A stretch of 64,000 bases of DNA from an uncultured Acidobacteriota bacterium. GTDB taxonomy: Bacteria; Acidobacteriota; UBA6911. Below are positions 13,451 through 20,383 of the stretch, in pieces (within the stretch, counting starts at the first letter, position 1; each line of letters begins with the position of its first letter). The notes below the pieces were generated by a model that had not been told where the DNA came from, did no database searches, and saw only the letters and a program-made list of their open reading frames with translations. The translations under genes were made by a program, and so were the position numbers. Where the stretch lies: contig CAWEJX010000004.1 in NCBI GenBank assembly GCA_963809485.1, positions 256,001-320,000 of the forward strand, read 5' to 3'.

Positions 13451-14992
13451 CTATATGGAAGCTTTGGGCTTCGGCCTGGGGCGATCCAGCCTTTTCTTCA
13501 GCAATTGCCTATACATGCCCAGCTTGACCGCAGCTTTTGTCTGATTGTCATCCGTTTGCTTCAGTGCACTCAAGATGACCCATTTTTCGAGATTATAGGC
13601 CGCAGCTTCCAGCCCCATGCCCCCCTGATCCGTATCCACATCATTGAATCGTATTAAAAAATAGCTTTTTTTCGAATCCTCGATCTTTTTGCGAACCAAT
13701 TCTGCCCGGGTTCTCAGATAATCGCTCACAACGCGCGGAAACATGTTCTCCGCATCGTCCAGATGCTGCATGGCGTGGCGCGGCTTGTCCAAGTCTAATA
13801 ATGTGTCTGCCAGGAGCAGATGGGCGTTGATCTTGAGCTTTTGAGACTTGGCCTTTTTCAGCGCGTCCTCGAAATATTGGCAAGCTTCATCCATTTCATT
13901 ATTCCGGGAATGACATTTGCCCAGGCATATTTTTGCCTCGGCTTGAAGCTCCGGGCTGTTGATCTTCTCCGGGGCCGCCAGATCCAGGGCTTCCATGGCA
14001 TGTTTTGAGGCAATTTTGCAGTTTCTCGAAGCGTCCTCCAGATAGAGCCAGCTTAAAGCCACCAAAACCTCAATTTTTTGCCGCTCGTACCGGTGGGTGC
14101 GACAAATTTCCAAAGCCTGATTGAGATGTGCCTCAGCCTCCTGAAAATTTTTGTCACGGAGAAGCGTCCTGCCGATGTTTGTCAGCGTTCGGGCAATATT
14201 CCGCGAATGATGGGCCGCATTATAGAGCCCCAGCGCGGAGGACAGCGTGTGGAACGACTGAGCGGTCTCACCCTGCGAACGGAGGATCGCGCCCAGACTC
14301 TGCAGGACATTTGCCTTGCTGATGTCGTCTCGGATGTCTTCGAGCAGCTGCTGCGCAGCGAGCAATTTATCCCTTCCTCCGAGCGCGTTCCCCTCTCTCC
14401 AGAGAAAAAATCCTTCAAGGAGGTAGCTGATGCCGATGCGCCAGTTGAGAACCGGCAGATCCCGGGACCGGTTTTTCGACGCGGCAAACCAGCGGAAAAA
14501 ACAGGCGCGGGATTCCTCGCAAGATTTGGTGAGCTCATCCTGTTCAAACAGGCGGCTGAAGCACCGCGCGATGAAATGATGCGCTTCCCCTTCACCCGAA
14601 GGGTCGCGCCTTTCCACGCACGTTTTAAGTATCTGCCGCGCCATGGATATCGCTTTATCGAATTTTCTATTTTCGTAATGATACTCGCACAGGACCAGCT
14701 TCTGTCCCGTTCGAAGACTGCCCATGGACAGAAATTCCGACTCCTTTTTTTGATATTTCTTTATGGCGTTGCCGGCGCTGCTGATGTTTCCACGGTAAAA
14801 ATGCAGCCTCGCGGCGATTGCCGATAATTTGGCTTTGAGCGGCTCATGAATCCGTGAGGCACGGGCATCCTGAAAAACCGCATTGTGATAATCAAATTTC
14901 ATCTGGGCCTGGCGGAAATTGCCGCGCGCCAGATCCTCCTCTATGTCCGCGGCAATAGCCTCCGGGCTCTGTTTGTCGGCCTCTGCCTGCAT
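13451..14992 (-). CDS. TPR-repeat protein with C-terminal Fis-type HTH (putative transcriptional regulator), 513 aa
   Basis: GGAGG RBS precedes ATG 14992. TPR-like helical repeats include ARTLTNIG, ANVLQSLG and AKICLGKC. The C-terminus LEKWVILSALKQTDDNQTKAAVKLGMYRQLL is Fis-HTH-like, and there is no AAA+ domain. Confidence 0.82.
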   Translation of the reverse strand: MQAEADKQSPEAIAADIEEDLARGNFRQAQMKFDYHNAVFQDARASRIHEPLKAKLSAIAARLHFYRGNISSAGNAIKKYQKKESEFLSMGSLRTGQKLVLCEYHYENRKFDKAISMARQILKTCVERRDPSGEGEAHHFIARCFSRLFEQDELTKSCEESRACFFRWFAASKNRSRDLPVLNWRIGISYLLEGFFLWREGNALGGRDKLLAAQQLLEDIRDDISKANVLQSLGAILRSQGETAQSFHTLSSALGLYNAAHHSRNIARTLTNIGRTLLRDKNFQEAEAHLNQALEICRTHRYERQKIEVLVALSWLYLEDASRNCKIASKHAMEALDLAAPEKINSPELQAEAKICLGKCHSRNNEMDEACQYFEDALKKAKSQKLKINAHLLLADTLLDLDKPRHAMQHLDDAENMFPRVVSDYLRTRAELVRKKIEDSKKSYFLIRFNDVDTDQGGMGLEAAAYNLEKWVILSALKQTDDNQTKAAVKLGMYRQLLKKRLDRPRPKPKASI

Positions 14993-15089
14993 GGTTATAT
15001 CCTCCCTCGATTTCGACCTCGACGGGGAAAGATCCGGTTCCCGCCCCATCCGGGCCGCGCACCCTCCATGGCACCCAGAATCCTATTAC

Positions 15090-15105
15090 TGCAATATTTA
15101 TTGCA
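15090..15105. promoter_or_regulatory. Palindromic operator-like site 1
   Basis: TGCAATA-TT-TATTGCA, a perfect 7-bp inverted repeat in the divergent intergenic region. Confidence 0.6.
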
Positions 15106-15220
15106 TGGCAACCCCAATGGCATTTTTATCCGTGCAGCTGCAACCATTCGCATATTGACAGGCATTCGGTGGCACATTAATCATACGTCAGGACATAAAT
15201 AAGCCAGAATAAATGATGCG

Positions 15221-15236
15221 CGCAACATTTGTTGCA
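15221..15236. promoter_or_regulatory. Palindromic operator-like site 2
   Basis: cGCAACA-TT-TGTTGCa has the same geometry and consensus as site 1 and lies about 30 nt before the operon start. A TTGACA lies between the two sites at 15155-15160. Confidence 0.6.
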
Positions 15237-18603: not shown

Positions 18604-18721
18604 CGCGGCAAGAACAACTGCCGCAACAATTCTCGGCCATGCAATTTCGTGGCTGATCTGCTACGAAATCTGGCAAACGACAGGCCGATGGGAAATGGGC
18701 GAAAGCCCCACGGAAGACTGA
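18299..18721 (+). CDS. Prokaryotic ubiquitin-conjugating (E2-like) protein with catalytic Cys88
   Basis: GGAGG RBS 8 nt upstream. RLVLE helix, W-G, IRYPDSFP, TPH...LC and WL--YE-W--TGRW tail are typical of bacterial E2s. Confidence 0.85.
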   Translation: MAWYNRNESGKMRLVLECQAMRETGSRFVLKKQGEQLYWMGRLSPIYSAFNLEIRYPDSFPENGPLVYVTSPALPQGTPHLLSGQQLCIFHPGYARKKGVYDAARTTAATILGHAISWLICYEIWQTTGRWEMGESPTED

Positions 18722-18740
18722 TCCGTGGAAAGGGGGAACA

Positions 18741-19613
18741 ATGAACCTCTATGACAGAATCCGGGAAATCGTCAATCCAGATGTCTTTGACAACAAGCAA
18801 GTCGTAGCTTTCGGTTTGGGCTCGGGTGGAAGCACTACGGTGCTGGAGCTGGCTAAATGCGGCGTCAGCAACTTTGAGCTTGTCGATCCCGATCATCTGG
18901 ATCTCAGCAACATTGTCCGCCATGTGTGCGGATTAAGGGATATAGGGCGGAACAAGGCGGATGCCATGCGAGACGAGATTCTCAACAGGAACCGCAACGC
19001 ATGCGTCGGCGCCCACGCATTTGACATCATGGAGGACTATCAACGCACGTCCGATTTGATACGCGACGCCGACCTCGTGCTTGCCGGGACAGACAATGAG
19101 CCTTCCAAGCACCGTATCAACCTGATCAGCCTGGAAGCCGGCATACCGGTCGTTTACGCCGCCGCCTATCATCGCGCTTTTTGCGGCGAGGTATTCCGGG
19201 TAATTCCGGGGCAAACGCCCTGCTATGCATGCTTTGCTCATGCGCTGGGCCGAACGGAAACAGTCGAGCAAACCGATAGGAGCAAGCTTCGTTACGACGA
19301 TCCGGAAATGGAGCATGCTCTTTCAACCTCCCCGGGACTGGGTATGGATATCGCAGCAATCGCCCTGATTGCCTCAAAGCTGGCGTTAATGACTCTCCTT
19401 GAAGGGACCCAATGGGCGATGCCGCCATTCTCAGGCAACTATATATTCTGGGGCAATCGGCCTCTGAATAACGGCCTGGTGACTCAGTACTGGGAAAGAA
19501 AATTCTGGCAGATCCGCTGCGATCCCCAATGCCTGATTTGTGGCGTGACAGGAAGCAACAGGAATGAGGGTTTGTATGAGGAAATCATGAACGGCCTAGG
19601 TGGAGCAGCATGA
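18741..19613 (+). CDS. ThiF/MoeB/E1-family adenylyltransferase
   Basis: GLGSGGS P-loop, DPD-L--SN--RH, GRNKA, TDN, and Zn-binding CYAC and CLIC pairs. Confidence 0.92.
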   Translation: MNLYDRIREIVNPDVFDNKQVVAFGLGSGGSTTVLELAKCGVSNFELVDPDHLDLSNIVRHVCGLRDIGRNKADAMRDEILNRNRNACVGAHAFDIMEDYQRTSDLIRDADLVLAGTDNEPSKHRINLISLEAGIPVVYAAAYHRAFCGEVFRVIPGQTPCYACFAHALGRTETVEQTDRSKLRYDDPEMEHALSTSPGLGMDIAAIALIASKLALMTLLEGTQWAMPPFSGNYIFWGNRPLNNGLVTQYWERKFWQIRCDPQCLICGVTGSNRNEGLYEEIMNGLGGAA

Positions 19614-20383
19614 TGACAATCCTGCTCGAGGTGAAGCCTTGGGTTTACGCGGCAACGCTGATAGCCGCGATTGTGTCGCTATTCATGTGGTGTCGCCGGC
19701 GCAAGAAGAAGGCACGAAGCGTTTCCCGGCAGGCATCCAACCATGGAAAATGGAAACAGTCAGCTACTGCCACCGAGACCGTTGCGGACAGCATTTCCAG
19801 ACTGCAGACAGCTTTCGGCTTCCGGATCGACGATGATTTCGGAGTTCGGCTAGGTTCCCTGCTAAGCACGGCAAAATATTACAGGCGACTGGGTTTTGTC
19901 GAATTGGCGCATACCCTGGACGATGTGGCGGAAAAAGCGGTTGAGAGCCTCAGAAGCCGCTGTGAGAAAACACTGAAAGAGGTGAAGATCGAATGCGTAG
20001 CATTCCAGCACAATGAGCGGGGCATCGCGGCCGGATTTGTCCTGAATCCGGCTGCGATGTCGGAGCCTTCTCCCGGTACATTTCTGCTTGAAATTGCCGT
20101 CGGCCCCGCAGGCAACAGGGCGGGGGGCCGAACTTCGCGGTATTTTGCAATACGGCTTGAAAAAGGCCGAATCGTGAAATTAAGCGCCGCGGAAACACTT
20201 ATTACCCTACCCGACAGGCCGAATTCCGTCACGGATGAGGTGGGCAATCTGATTGTGACCGCCGTCGATCCATGGGTCTGTGCCATCATTCTAGGCAATC
20301 GGCAACTTGCCCAGGACAACTGCCCGTGTCCGCCTTTTATGGAGGAATACGAGAAAATATTGAGATCCCTATTACGGCCCTAA
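19610..20383 (+). CDS. Single-pass membrane protein of unknown function, last gene of the E1/E2/JAB operon
   Basis: ATGA overlap with the E1 stop. N-terminal TM (VYAATLIAAIVSLFMW) is followed by RRRKKK (positive-inside). Confidence 0.7.
   Translation: MMTILLEVKPWVYAATLIAAIVSLFMWCRRRKKKARSVSRQASNHGKWKQSATATETVADSISRLQTAFGFRIDDDFGVRLGSLLSTAKYYRRLGFVELAHTLDDVAEKAVESLRSRCEKTLKEVKIECVAFQHNERGIAAGFVLNPAAMSEPSPGTFLLEIAVGPAGNRAGGRTSRYFAIRLEKGRIVKLSAAETLITLPDRPNSVTDEVGNLIVTAVDPWVCAIILGNRQLAQDNCPCPPFMEEYEKILRSLLRP

Follow-up and report, generated by a model that had tools for sequence, protein, structure and literature searches.

A rare six-gene bacterial cassette of putative conjugation enzymes with duplicated JAB–UEV proteins and predicted membrane anchors

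What does a bacterium do with an E1-like enzyme, an E2, two JAB peptidases, a very small protein and two predicted membrane components encoded side by side? The question is raised by six genes, all on the plus strand between positions 15269 and 20383 of the 64-kb stretch of acidobacterial DNA analysed here (the window), which belongs to a genome that is 95.67% complete. In order, we call the genes g1, g2, g3, E2, E1 and g6. Sequence comparison places them in the Cap2/Cap3/6A branch of bacterial conjugation systems, as an architectural variant that is conserved and very rare. Our preferred reading, in which we have about as much confidence as doubt, is that they specify a membrane-tethered conjugation system of this lineage whose tag is g2, a protein that would not have the ubiquitin fold. 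The biochemical steps, the topology and the role set out below are those that we infer. The genes, and the non-coding gap after the second of them, are laid out as follows.

15269–16879, plus strand: g1, 536 residues; transmembrane segment 1 (TM1), a coiled-coil loop, TM2, a JAB domain and a Cys-less UEV-like domain
16901–17089, plus strand: g2, 62 residues from its second ATG, or 64 from 16895, where the open reading frame (ORF) opens
17090–17349, plus strand: non-coding gap between g2 and g3, 260 nucleotides (nt), with conserved blocks that include a TTGAC motif
17350–18603, plus strand: g3, with an ATG start; soluble JAB, UEV-like domain and a read-through tail (residues 317–417)
18299–18721, plus strand: E2, 140 residues, with H80 and a catalytic-type C88 (PH...LC)
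18741–19613, plus strand: E1, 290 residues; a single-domain adenylating enzyme of the ThiF/MoeB type
19610–20383, plus strand: g6, 257 residues; an N-terminal TM, a basic stretch and a predicted cytoplasmic domain of about 170 residues without known family

The initial annotation described six co-oriented, mostly tightly coupled genes. Orientation and order are confirmed by the ORF calls, and the order recurs in a second locus. Tight coupling holds for g1–g2 (21 nt apart), for E2–E1 (19 nt) and for E1–g6, which overlap by 4 nt; it does not hold for g2–g3, separated by 260 nt. The g3 and E2 genes overlap by 305 nt. The g3 frame is open from a TTG at 17266, and its relatives begin at the equivalent of 17350. 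PADLOC models match E2, E1 and both JAB proteins, while Pfam has no family for g2, E2 or g6.

Is the same set of genes found elsewhere? A 16.8-kb locus (L011) of a 92-kb contig, whose proteins NCBI names Candidatus Poribacteria bacterium, carries counterparts of all six genes in unchanged order: a TM/coiled-coil/TM–JAB–UEV protein of 558 residues (37% identical to g1), a small protein of 74 residues (35% to g2), a JAB–UEV protein of 288 residues (38% to g3), an E2 of 144 residues (54%), an E1 of 297 residues (58%) and a membrane protein of 439 residues (26% to g6). The flanks differ; those of L011 hold pyrimidine and oxidoreductase genes, an unassigned 266-residue gene and a weak PIN-like gene. 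Since the six genes recur together and in one order, we take the set to be a real, conserved cassette that extends across two phyla, and the expectation that their homologs would co-occur in another genome is borne out. The ortholog of g1 (L011 5852–7528) matches it at E = 5e-63, against 8e-24 for g1 and the second JAB–UEV protein of that locus, p3. As g1 pairs best with p1 and g3 with p3, the JAB–UEV duplication predates the split between the window and L011.

L012, L009 and L010, fragments from a close relative of the window, include g1, g2, g3, E2 and a divergent gene discussed below. Between these relatives g2 and E2 are each 94% identical, and g2, E2 and E1 together span 88–94%; g1 and g3 are 77% identical. 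That the JAB–UEV proteins diverge faster would fit a role in recognition or sensing that is subject to diversifying pressure. Two further proteins, P0005 (g3-like) and P0007 (g1-like, 806 residues, with the g1 architecture), both come from Logan contigs, the longest 4,316 nt; this suggests a third lineage in which the two genes are adjacent.

How rare is the cassette? A word-indexed search of 5.8 billion proteins confirmed relatives of g3 in three of 513 candidates. A HMMER search of 1.84 billion representatives gave 310 matches at E ≤ 1e-3, five of them full-length JAB–UEV relatives at E ≤ 1e-30, one of which is g1 itself, and a metagenome scan with the JAB–UEV alignment gave five loci from 29 candidates. 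In a sample of 401 genomes from the phylum, six have any match; only the window genome has one that extends beyond the JAB domain, and in the three same-genus genomes searched (3/3) the cassette was not found. Pattern scans of 185,579 species genomes, each built on no more than one or two short peptide patterns and so no proof of absence, confirmed none of 20 JAB–UEV and none of 60 E2 stretches. The corresponding scan of IMG/VR viral contigs with the E2 alignment, again built on one or two peptide patterns, confirmed none of 49, and plasmid tblastn with g3 returned just three records, all JAB-only. Among the best 120 of 1,588 E1 matches (E ≤ 1e-20), five clusters are of the window type (55–91% identity). 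The other 115 belong to a sister cassette in which the JAB is not fused to a UEV-like domain, represented by locus L014; among these matches, then, the sister cassette is the widespread one. With about four lineages found among billions of proteins, the six-gene cassette is very rare.

What are the JAB peptidases fused to? Pfam Prok-JAB matches g1 at 2.9e-8 and g3 at 1.5e-5. The JAMM motif E..HxH..S..D is complete in both (E61, H127, H129, S137 and D140 in g3; HRHP...SGGD at 348 in g1) and is invariant in 6/6 sequences. We modelled the g3 core with AlphaFold2 from a 47-sequence alignment (mean predicted local distance difference test score, pLDDT, 88.1) and compared the fold by Foldseek and VIA-align. 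Residues ~30–210 match JAB/MPN proteases, best of all Cap3 in complex with CD-NTase (9ild_A; Z 15.8, root-mean-square deviation (rmsd) 2.6 over 142 residues); BRCC36 is also matched (5cw3_A; Z 15.2). The NCBIfam Cap3 equivalog scores 23.3 bits against a cut-off of 200. Residues 218–316 match the UEV domain of Tsg101 (2f0r_A; Z 10.6, rmsd 2.5, 96 residues aligned) and, over 96–102 residues, Ube2W (Z 10.3), several E2s (Z 9.2–10.2), the RWD domain of Knl1 (Z 9.6) and Mms2 (Z 9.3). The YP..PP motif is kept in this domain (YPFDPP at 269 of g3; YPYVSP at 490 of g1), which has no invariant Cys or His. The claim of the initial annotation that a JAB is fused to a Cys-less UBC fold, in two copies, therefore holds, and on the model the C-terminal domain of g1 and g3 is an inactive, UEV-like E2 fold.

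We found no description of JAB–UEV fusions, or of the six-gene order, in published full text; that search did not extend to the operon tables in the supplements to papers on CBASS, Bil and Bub, where a prior mention is possible. Two further sets of JAB proteins may be recorded here. P0008–P0040, P0086, P0087 and P0107 are membrane-associated proteins with a JAB followed by a UEV-like domain bearing the PP motif, some with an N-terminal TM and others in which a TM and long extracytoplasmic regions follow that domain. A 3.3-kb metagenome contig (L013, 1–1922) encodes a JAB with an N-terminal extension, 29% identical to g3 over the JAB domain only, followed by a 389-residue E1 with an N-terminal domain; no E2 was seen there.

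Why does g3 run on into the E2 gene? Its frame has no stop after the UEV-like domain and continues for 305 nt into E2, in a different frame. The distant orthologs P0004, P0005 and P0007, and g1 as well, end within a few residues of this domain, and the L011 ortholog also stops normally; the 417-residue read-through form is common to the relatives at 77% identity. Against L009 the overlap shows 18 nt differences, 11 of which fall on E2 third positions. They produce 11 synonymous and seven non-synonymous codon changes in the E2 frame, as against four synonymous and 11 non-synonymous in the frame of the g3 tail. From this pattern of substitution, E2 is the selected frame and the g3 tail the passenger of a lineage-specific loss of the stop codon. 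We conclude that the last ~100 residues of g3 are a lineage-specific read-through and form no domain. A programmed frameshift fusion of g3 and E2 was considered and dropped: E2 has its own GGAGG–ATG, and the L011 ortholog of g3 stops 16 nt before its E2. Protein P0003, encoded on the 1,053-nt fragment L010, equals the g3 relative over its first 157 residues and continues in frame into unrelated sequence, possibly a chimeric contig or a rearranged copy.

How might the E1 work? Pfam ThiF matches it as one domain (residues 18–221; 5.9e-33), as does the PADLOC CBASS ‘E1-E2’ model PDLC00829 (4.7e-32). Its matches in the PDB include MoeB (1.3e-12), PaaA (1.2e-11) and MccB (2.1e-11), and it aligns to the single-domain enzymes MoeB, ThiF and UBA5. 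We aligned 121 sequences, six of the window type and 115 of the L014 type. All of them keep the residues for binding of nucleotide and Mg, namely G25, G27–G30, D49, R60, K72 and D118 (121/121); of the Zn-binding cysteines, C161 and C164 are present in all and C264 and C267 each in 120/121. The crossover loop, identified by alignment to MoeB as the segment that links the first CxxC to the SPG helix, has a Cys in none of the 121. All 121 carry a Tyr–Asp pair instead (Tyr185–Asp in the window), shifted by one alignment column from one clade to the other. Apart from the Zn ligands, one Cys is invariant: C63, which lines up with a hydrophobic position of MoeB and UBA2 (RQxL) and is probably buried. 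According to PMC11601596, known E1s carry a Cys in, or inserted into, the crossover loop, except those of Bub, in which the sole invariant residue of the loop is a Tyr that forms an oxyester.

In contrast to the E1 loop, the E2 keeps its cysteine. It matches the PADLOC CBASS E2 model PDLC00876 at 2.3e-20 and touches only the E2 end of the cyclase–E2 fusion model. The one solved structure related to it in sequence is that of SmE2 from E2-CBASS (8hsb_B; E 2.6e-4), in which C101, the conserved site of that E2 (PMC12948482), aligns with C88. A ribosome-binding site, GGAGG, lies 8 nt before the ATG.

Which product could serve as the tag? The initial annotation saw no recognisable β-grasp ubiquitin-like protein (Ubl). 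This stands as far as the fold goes, as g2 matches no Ubl family and shows no confident β-grasp in its low-confidence AlphaFold2 model, but a candidate modifier does exist, and it is g2. No family in Pfam, NCBIfam, PADLOC or PHROGs includes it. Its orthologs share T9, E11–E12, L20–R21, R26–Y27, V33–I34–D35 and a terminal I-V-K-x-V-P-x-x-G-H. G57–H58 is invariant, and the tails that begin there differ in length and sequence in the three orthologs found: HWLKL (window), HWLKLEALSISAY and HFHN. The residues leading up to the final Gly are VG in the window and in L012, and GG in L011. Among the operon products, compared between the window and L011, g2 alone has a conserved C-terminal Gly. A Gly that is kept, ahead of a tail variable in sequence as well as in length, is how a peptidase-trimmed precursor is designed. 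The sister cassette likewise has a small protein of no family, directly 5' of its E2, that ends ...KKPLTMRENLGGEY (...ENLGGEY), with seven further residues in L014 and without them in L018. (The ESM Atlas model of the L014 protein has a pLDDT of 0.47 and only sub-0.9 matches.) Since g2 is the sole product with a conserved Gly beside a variable tail, and since the sister cassette has a small ...LGG-plus-tail protein, g2 is probably a modifier precursor, though not one with a recognisable β-grasp. That g2, like E2, is far more strongly kept among the close relatives (94%) than g1 and g3 (77%) speaks for the same reading. Predictions of an E1 dimer in complex with g2(1–57) scored 0.10, 0.65 and 0.01 in separate runs; we use them neither for nor against this assignment.

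Where in the cell would the system operate? By hydropathy, g1 has TM1 at 25–56 and TM2 at 162–188, with a heptad-rich coiled-coil stretch of ~105 residues between them, and g6 has a TM at 4–28, so that the two membrane-bound components of the initial annotation are confirmed. Basic residues follow the TM of g6 and TM2 of g1. By the positive-inside rule the catalytic domains would therefore be cytoplasmic and the coiled-coil loop of g1 periplasmic. The C-terminal domain of g6 is homologous to the L011 protein at 10131–11450 (E 2e-14), which carries an additional PAS_3 domain (2.8e-24). For g6 itself there is no family or fold lead: PDB sequences and PHROGs gave nothing below E 1e-3, and the ESM Atlas no usable match.

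We propose the following cycle. A JAB peptidase, g1 and/or g3, would trim the variable C-terminal tail of pro-g2 after Gly57, and the ThiF-type E1 would adenylate the Gly so exposed. The g2 acyl group would then pass to Cys88 of E2, either directly or by way of the crossover-loop Tyr185 of E1, and E2 would transfer g2 onto an amino group of the target. The JABs may also reverse the modification. The two JAB–UEV proteins would probably act as a pair, held at the inner membrane by g1 with its ~105-residue coiled-coil loop toward the periplasm, their Cys-less UEV domains serving as docking modules for g2 or for E2. Membrane-anchored g6, with its PAS sensor in the poribacterial ortholog, is a candidate output or target.

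Several points weigh against this proposal. In the window g2 has VG rather than GG; just three orthologs of it are known, in two clusters (14 candidates searched), and the model built from these three sequences has a pLDDT of 44.8, with a helix at 10–22 and short strands. In hhalign the families of g2 and of the GGEY protein of the sister cassette match with a probability of 0.5%, which is not significant; the analogy between the two small proteins is therefore one of position and C-terminal design only. With Cys in 0/121 crossover loops the canonical thioester step of an E1 would be unavailable, and the Tyr route is borrowed from Bub. The loss of the g3 stop codon and the 305-nt run into E2 could perturb translation of E2. 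The genome has 7.32% contamination. The locus, finally, has metabolic neighbours (a peptidase, a transporter of the major facilitator superfamily (MFS) and a molybdoenzyme), and the window shows neither a recognisable effector nor the surroundings of a defence island; a defence role, which the initial annotation had raised, gains no support there.

What else could the cassette be? Of the alternatives, the one that survives best, which we nevertheless consider improbable, is a CBASS-like system with no free modifier. The E1 and E2 would conjugate the C-terminus of a larger operon protein (e.g. g6), and g2 would be an adaptor, inhibitor or regulator. The E2 and the JAB are indeed nearest to CBASS E2 and to Cap3. 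Plasmid tblastn with E2 gave 23 records, and the closest homologs, in the two contexts inspected, lie in operons of a CD-NTase-type nucleotidyltransferase and E2 (with or without a patatin), i.e. E2-CBASS; the low pLDDT of the g2 model is a further point in favour. Yet the larger operon proteins have no conserved C-terminal Gly or Ala, their ends differing between the window and L011, and it is g2 that shows the Gly and variable tail of a JAB-processed precursor, as does the ...LGG protein of the sister cassette.

A good deal less probable is a pathway for a ribosomally synthesized and post-translationally modified peptide (RiPP), in which the ThiF-type enzyme would activate the C-terminus of g2 as MccB and PaaA do, the JABs would be leader or tail peptidases and the membrane proteins would provide export or immunity. 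The E1 matches MccB and PaaA about as well as it matches MoeB, a small gene does stand ahead of the enzymes, and there are two membrane proteins. Known RiPP routes, however, have no role for a Cys-bearing E2 and two UEV domains. The cassette has no transporter or tailoring enzyme, its E1 opens directly with the Rossmann fold, which leaves no space for an N-terminal domain that would bind the peptide, and the nearest full-length relatives of that E1 are linked to E2 and JAB genes.

Might the locus instead be a decaying or non-functional remnant, its degeneration marked by the lost stop of g3 and the E2 overlap? The passenger status of the g3 tail and the failure to find the cassette in the same-genus genomes speak for this, but we regard it as very improbable: the six ORFs and their catalytic motifs are intact, the 417-residue form is kept in relatives, purifying selection acts on the E2 frame where the two genes overlap, and the poribacterial ortholog stops normally. 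The pairing of a JAB with a small Gly-ended protein also recalls CysO/Mec+. That g2 might be a sulfur carrier of the ThiS/MoaD/CysO type, thiocarboxylated by the ThiF/MoeB-like E1 with its Cys-less crossover loop and then processed by a JAB, after the manner of the JAB-linked sulfur pathways in Iyer 2006, we all but discard, as no rhodanese, sulfurtransferase or biosynthetic gene lies in or beside the cassette, g2 has no confident β-grasp, and the active-type E2, the UEV domains and the membrane anchoring would be left unexplained.

Returning to a g2 conjugation system, what would it be for? Phage or stress defence is a possible role, which we put forward tentatively; envelope or other signalling is somewhat unlikely, and some different role altogether takes up the rest of our expectation. 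If the proposal is right, the definition of a ‘ubiquitin-like’ modifier would be broadened, and the cassette would be a compact system in which a membrane signal switches a conjugation cascade.

How might expression of the cassette be controlled? Upstream lie a divergent gene and a repeated palindrome.

13451–15049, minus strand: candidate regulator, 532 residues; an N-terminal region without family, TPR repeats and a marginal C-terminal Fis-type helix-turn-helix (HTH)
15091–15106 and 15222–15237, no strand assigned: two copies of the palindromic 16-mer GCAAYATTTRTTGCAT, 131 nt apart in the 219-nt divergent region; candidate operators

The initial annotation placed the operon under a TPR–Fis-HTH regulator. 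The divergent TPR gene is there (Pfam TPR_12, 1.5e-19), while the HTH is marginal (HTH_8, 3.6e-4, 20.7 bits against a cut-off of 22; NCBIfam Fis, 1.3e-4) and the gene is missing from the poribacterial locus. As it is present in L012 at 82% identity and has no homolog in L011, it is best regarded as specific to the lineage of the window and outside the conserved system. GCAAYATTTRTTGCAT has two matches in the 64 kb against none expected, for a pattern derived from the same region. L012 keeps both sites at the same spacing; the GCAA/TTGC arms are kept and 4/6 inner bases of site 1 differ. The two copies flank a TTGACA-type promoter-like site (15155–15184), and the TPR–HTH protein may bind them. 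Promoter and terminator scans did not rise above shuffles.

The gap between g2 and g3 has a folding z of −0.37, which is not significant. A 58-residue ORF within it (17160–17336) was rejected as a seventh gene, its frame not being open in the relative L010. In L011 a strong GGAAGG.../...CCTTCC hairpin with a U-run (7764–7955), a possible attenuator, follows directly 3' of the small gene, in a 181-nt gap (whole-gap z −0.85). The gap of the window is possibly an internal promoter or attenuator. Given this non-coding gap, and the terminator-like hairpin in the corresponding position of L011, expression of the small gene may differ in level from that of the enzymes.

Elsewhere in the window Rfam has no matches. 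An MFS-type transporter gene (10965–12060) appears split across two frames (ORFs 10965–11462 and 11296–12060), possibly by a frameshift, by decay to a pseudogene or by an assembly error. Flank synteny in five related genomes gave just 26–43% matches on unrelated contigs and no insertion boundaries. Among the sequencing runs for the locus none with RNA is listed, and DNA runs appear at shares of ≤0.15.

How does the cassette compare with known systems? Within a few years bacterial ubiquitin-like conjugation has passed from bioinformatic curiosity to shown biochemistry, and to phage defence for some classes (CBASS Cap2/Cap3, Bil, Bub and 6A-MBL). To our knowledge, each class so far has had its own answer to the choice of tag, the chemistry of the E1 and the enzyme that deconjugates. 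We compared the cassette with type II CBASS, E2-CBASS, Bil, Bub (6E), 6A-MBL and PRTRC, the last of which we take to be class 6d. Five classes, 6a–6e, were distinguished by Iyer et al. in 2006 (PMC1779556). Of these, 6a now goes by the name of 6A-MBL, 6b by CBASS II, 6c by Bil and 6e by Bub, following PMC10557695, PMC11601596 and 10.1101/2022.03.31.486616. The initial annotation called the system distinct. That is so in that no described class is matched gene for gene; it is not so for the enzymes, whose E2, E1 and JAB are kin of the sister cassette and of the Cap2/Cap3/6A lineage.

The likeness to type II CBASS lies in an E2 that matches CBASS E2 models, in a JAB fold nearest to Cap3 and in a substrate that is probably a C-terminus without the ubiquitin fold, like that of cGAS. 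A precedent for such a substrate is given in 10.1101/2022.03.31.486616, where Cap2 adenylates the disordered C-terminus of cGAS. By the same text Cap2 fuses E2 and E1 and has a crossover-loop Cys, whereas the genes of the window are separate, the E1 loop has no Cys and there is no cyclic-nucleotide effector. Nor is there a CD-NTase, in agreement with the initial annotation: none of seven proteins of the locus matches a cyclase family, and SMODS (PF18144) has no match in the operon or in the genome. With E2-CBASS the cassette shares an E2 of the SmE2 type with its Cys, and it differs in having an E1 and no CD-NTase.

To 6A-MBL there are sub-threshold cap2_3 matches (E1 58.5 bits and g3 29.1 bits against a cut-off of 320). 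That class, however, has a single E2–E1–JAB polypeptide (NF058523) and a metallo-β-lactamase (MBL; NF058524), while the genes here are separate and there is no MBL. We know of no β-grasp Ubl described for 6A-MBL. A classical 6A locus does occur in the same phylum (L015, 8885–12080 of G236:C1, minus strand), with a 782-residue E2–E1–JAB fusion beside a 252-residue MBL-like protein.

The likeness to Bub lies in a crossover loop without Cys and with a conserved Tyr, a resemblance in mechanism only, and in a Cys-less E2/RWD-like fold in the operon. The E2 of Bub has Ser for Cys, whereas C88 is kept here; there is no poly-β-grasp Ubl, the JAB is fused to a UEV-like domain and not to the E1, and DUF6527/BubE (PF20137) has no match in the operon proteins or in the genome. 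Bil, like the cassette, has separate genes for E2, JAB and E1 and one for a small protein. According to PMC10557695 and PMC11601596 its E1 is multidomain (IAD–AAD–CYS) and BilA is a β-grasp Ubl; the E1 here is a single domain of 290 residues, and g2 has no confident β-grasp. As to PRTRC, TIGR03736 scored 19 bits against a cut-off of 144.75, and no other PRTRC model matched.

In eukaryotes the E2–UEV pair Ubc13–Mms2 likewise combines an active E2 with an inactive E2-fold module, and JAB and UEV come together in BRCC36 complexes, which contain a UEV subunit. The likeness is one of fold, with no sequence-level relation shown. In the cassette the JAB and UEV are on one polypeptide, duplicated, with one copy predicted to be membrane-anchored.

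What, then, does the cassette add? It adds JAB peptidases fused to apparently inactive E2 (UEV) folds, in two diverged copies; machinery tied directly to the membrane, where one loop is predicted to reach the periplasm and one ortholog carries a PAS sensor; a probable tag without the ubiquitin fold; and an E1 without a crossover-loop Cys paired with a Cys E2. A bolder proposal, which we think unlikely, is that these features define a sixth architectural class. In it a mini-modifier of ~57 residues, not of the ubiquitin fold, would lose its tail at the inner membrane to a sensor-coupled JAB–UEV pair, and the Cys-less E1 (through a Tyr oxyester or direct attack of E2 on the adenylate) and the Cys E2 would form a mixed oxyester/thioester relay not yet described. 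On this proposal the target might, given the membrane anchoring and the kinship of Cap2-type enzymes with Atg7/Atg3 (10.1101/2022.03.31.486616), be a membrane protein or even a lipid.

The nearest full-length relatives are those of the sister, unfused cassette: 33% identity for E1 (3e-43), 32% for E2 (4e-16) and 29% for JAB (9e-14). It is seen in L014 (6262–10793 of G206:C10, a genome of the same phylum whose E1, P0162, NCBI names Holophagales), which adjoins a 1,530-residue helicase–methylase, and in L018 (Mesorhizobium plasmid NZ_CP080523.1, 4054–8960), and we found no published description of it. Its order is small protein, E2, a Phd-like E2', ThiF E1 and a JAB whose C-terminal domain is of another kind, followed by an MBL/ComEC-like protein, a patatin-like protein or both. 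Its E1 likewise has a Cys-less crossover loop with Tyr–Asp. The cassette of the window differs in its two JAB–UEV fusions and two membrane proteins, in its gene order and in having no E2', MBL or patatin, and the two small proteins are not detectably homologous. The cassette of the window being rare and its organism uncultured, the abundant sister cassette offers the easier entry point.

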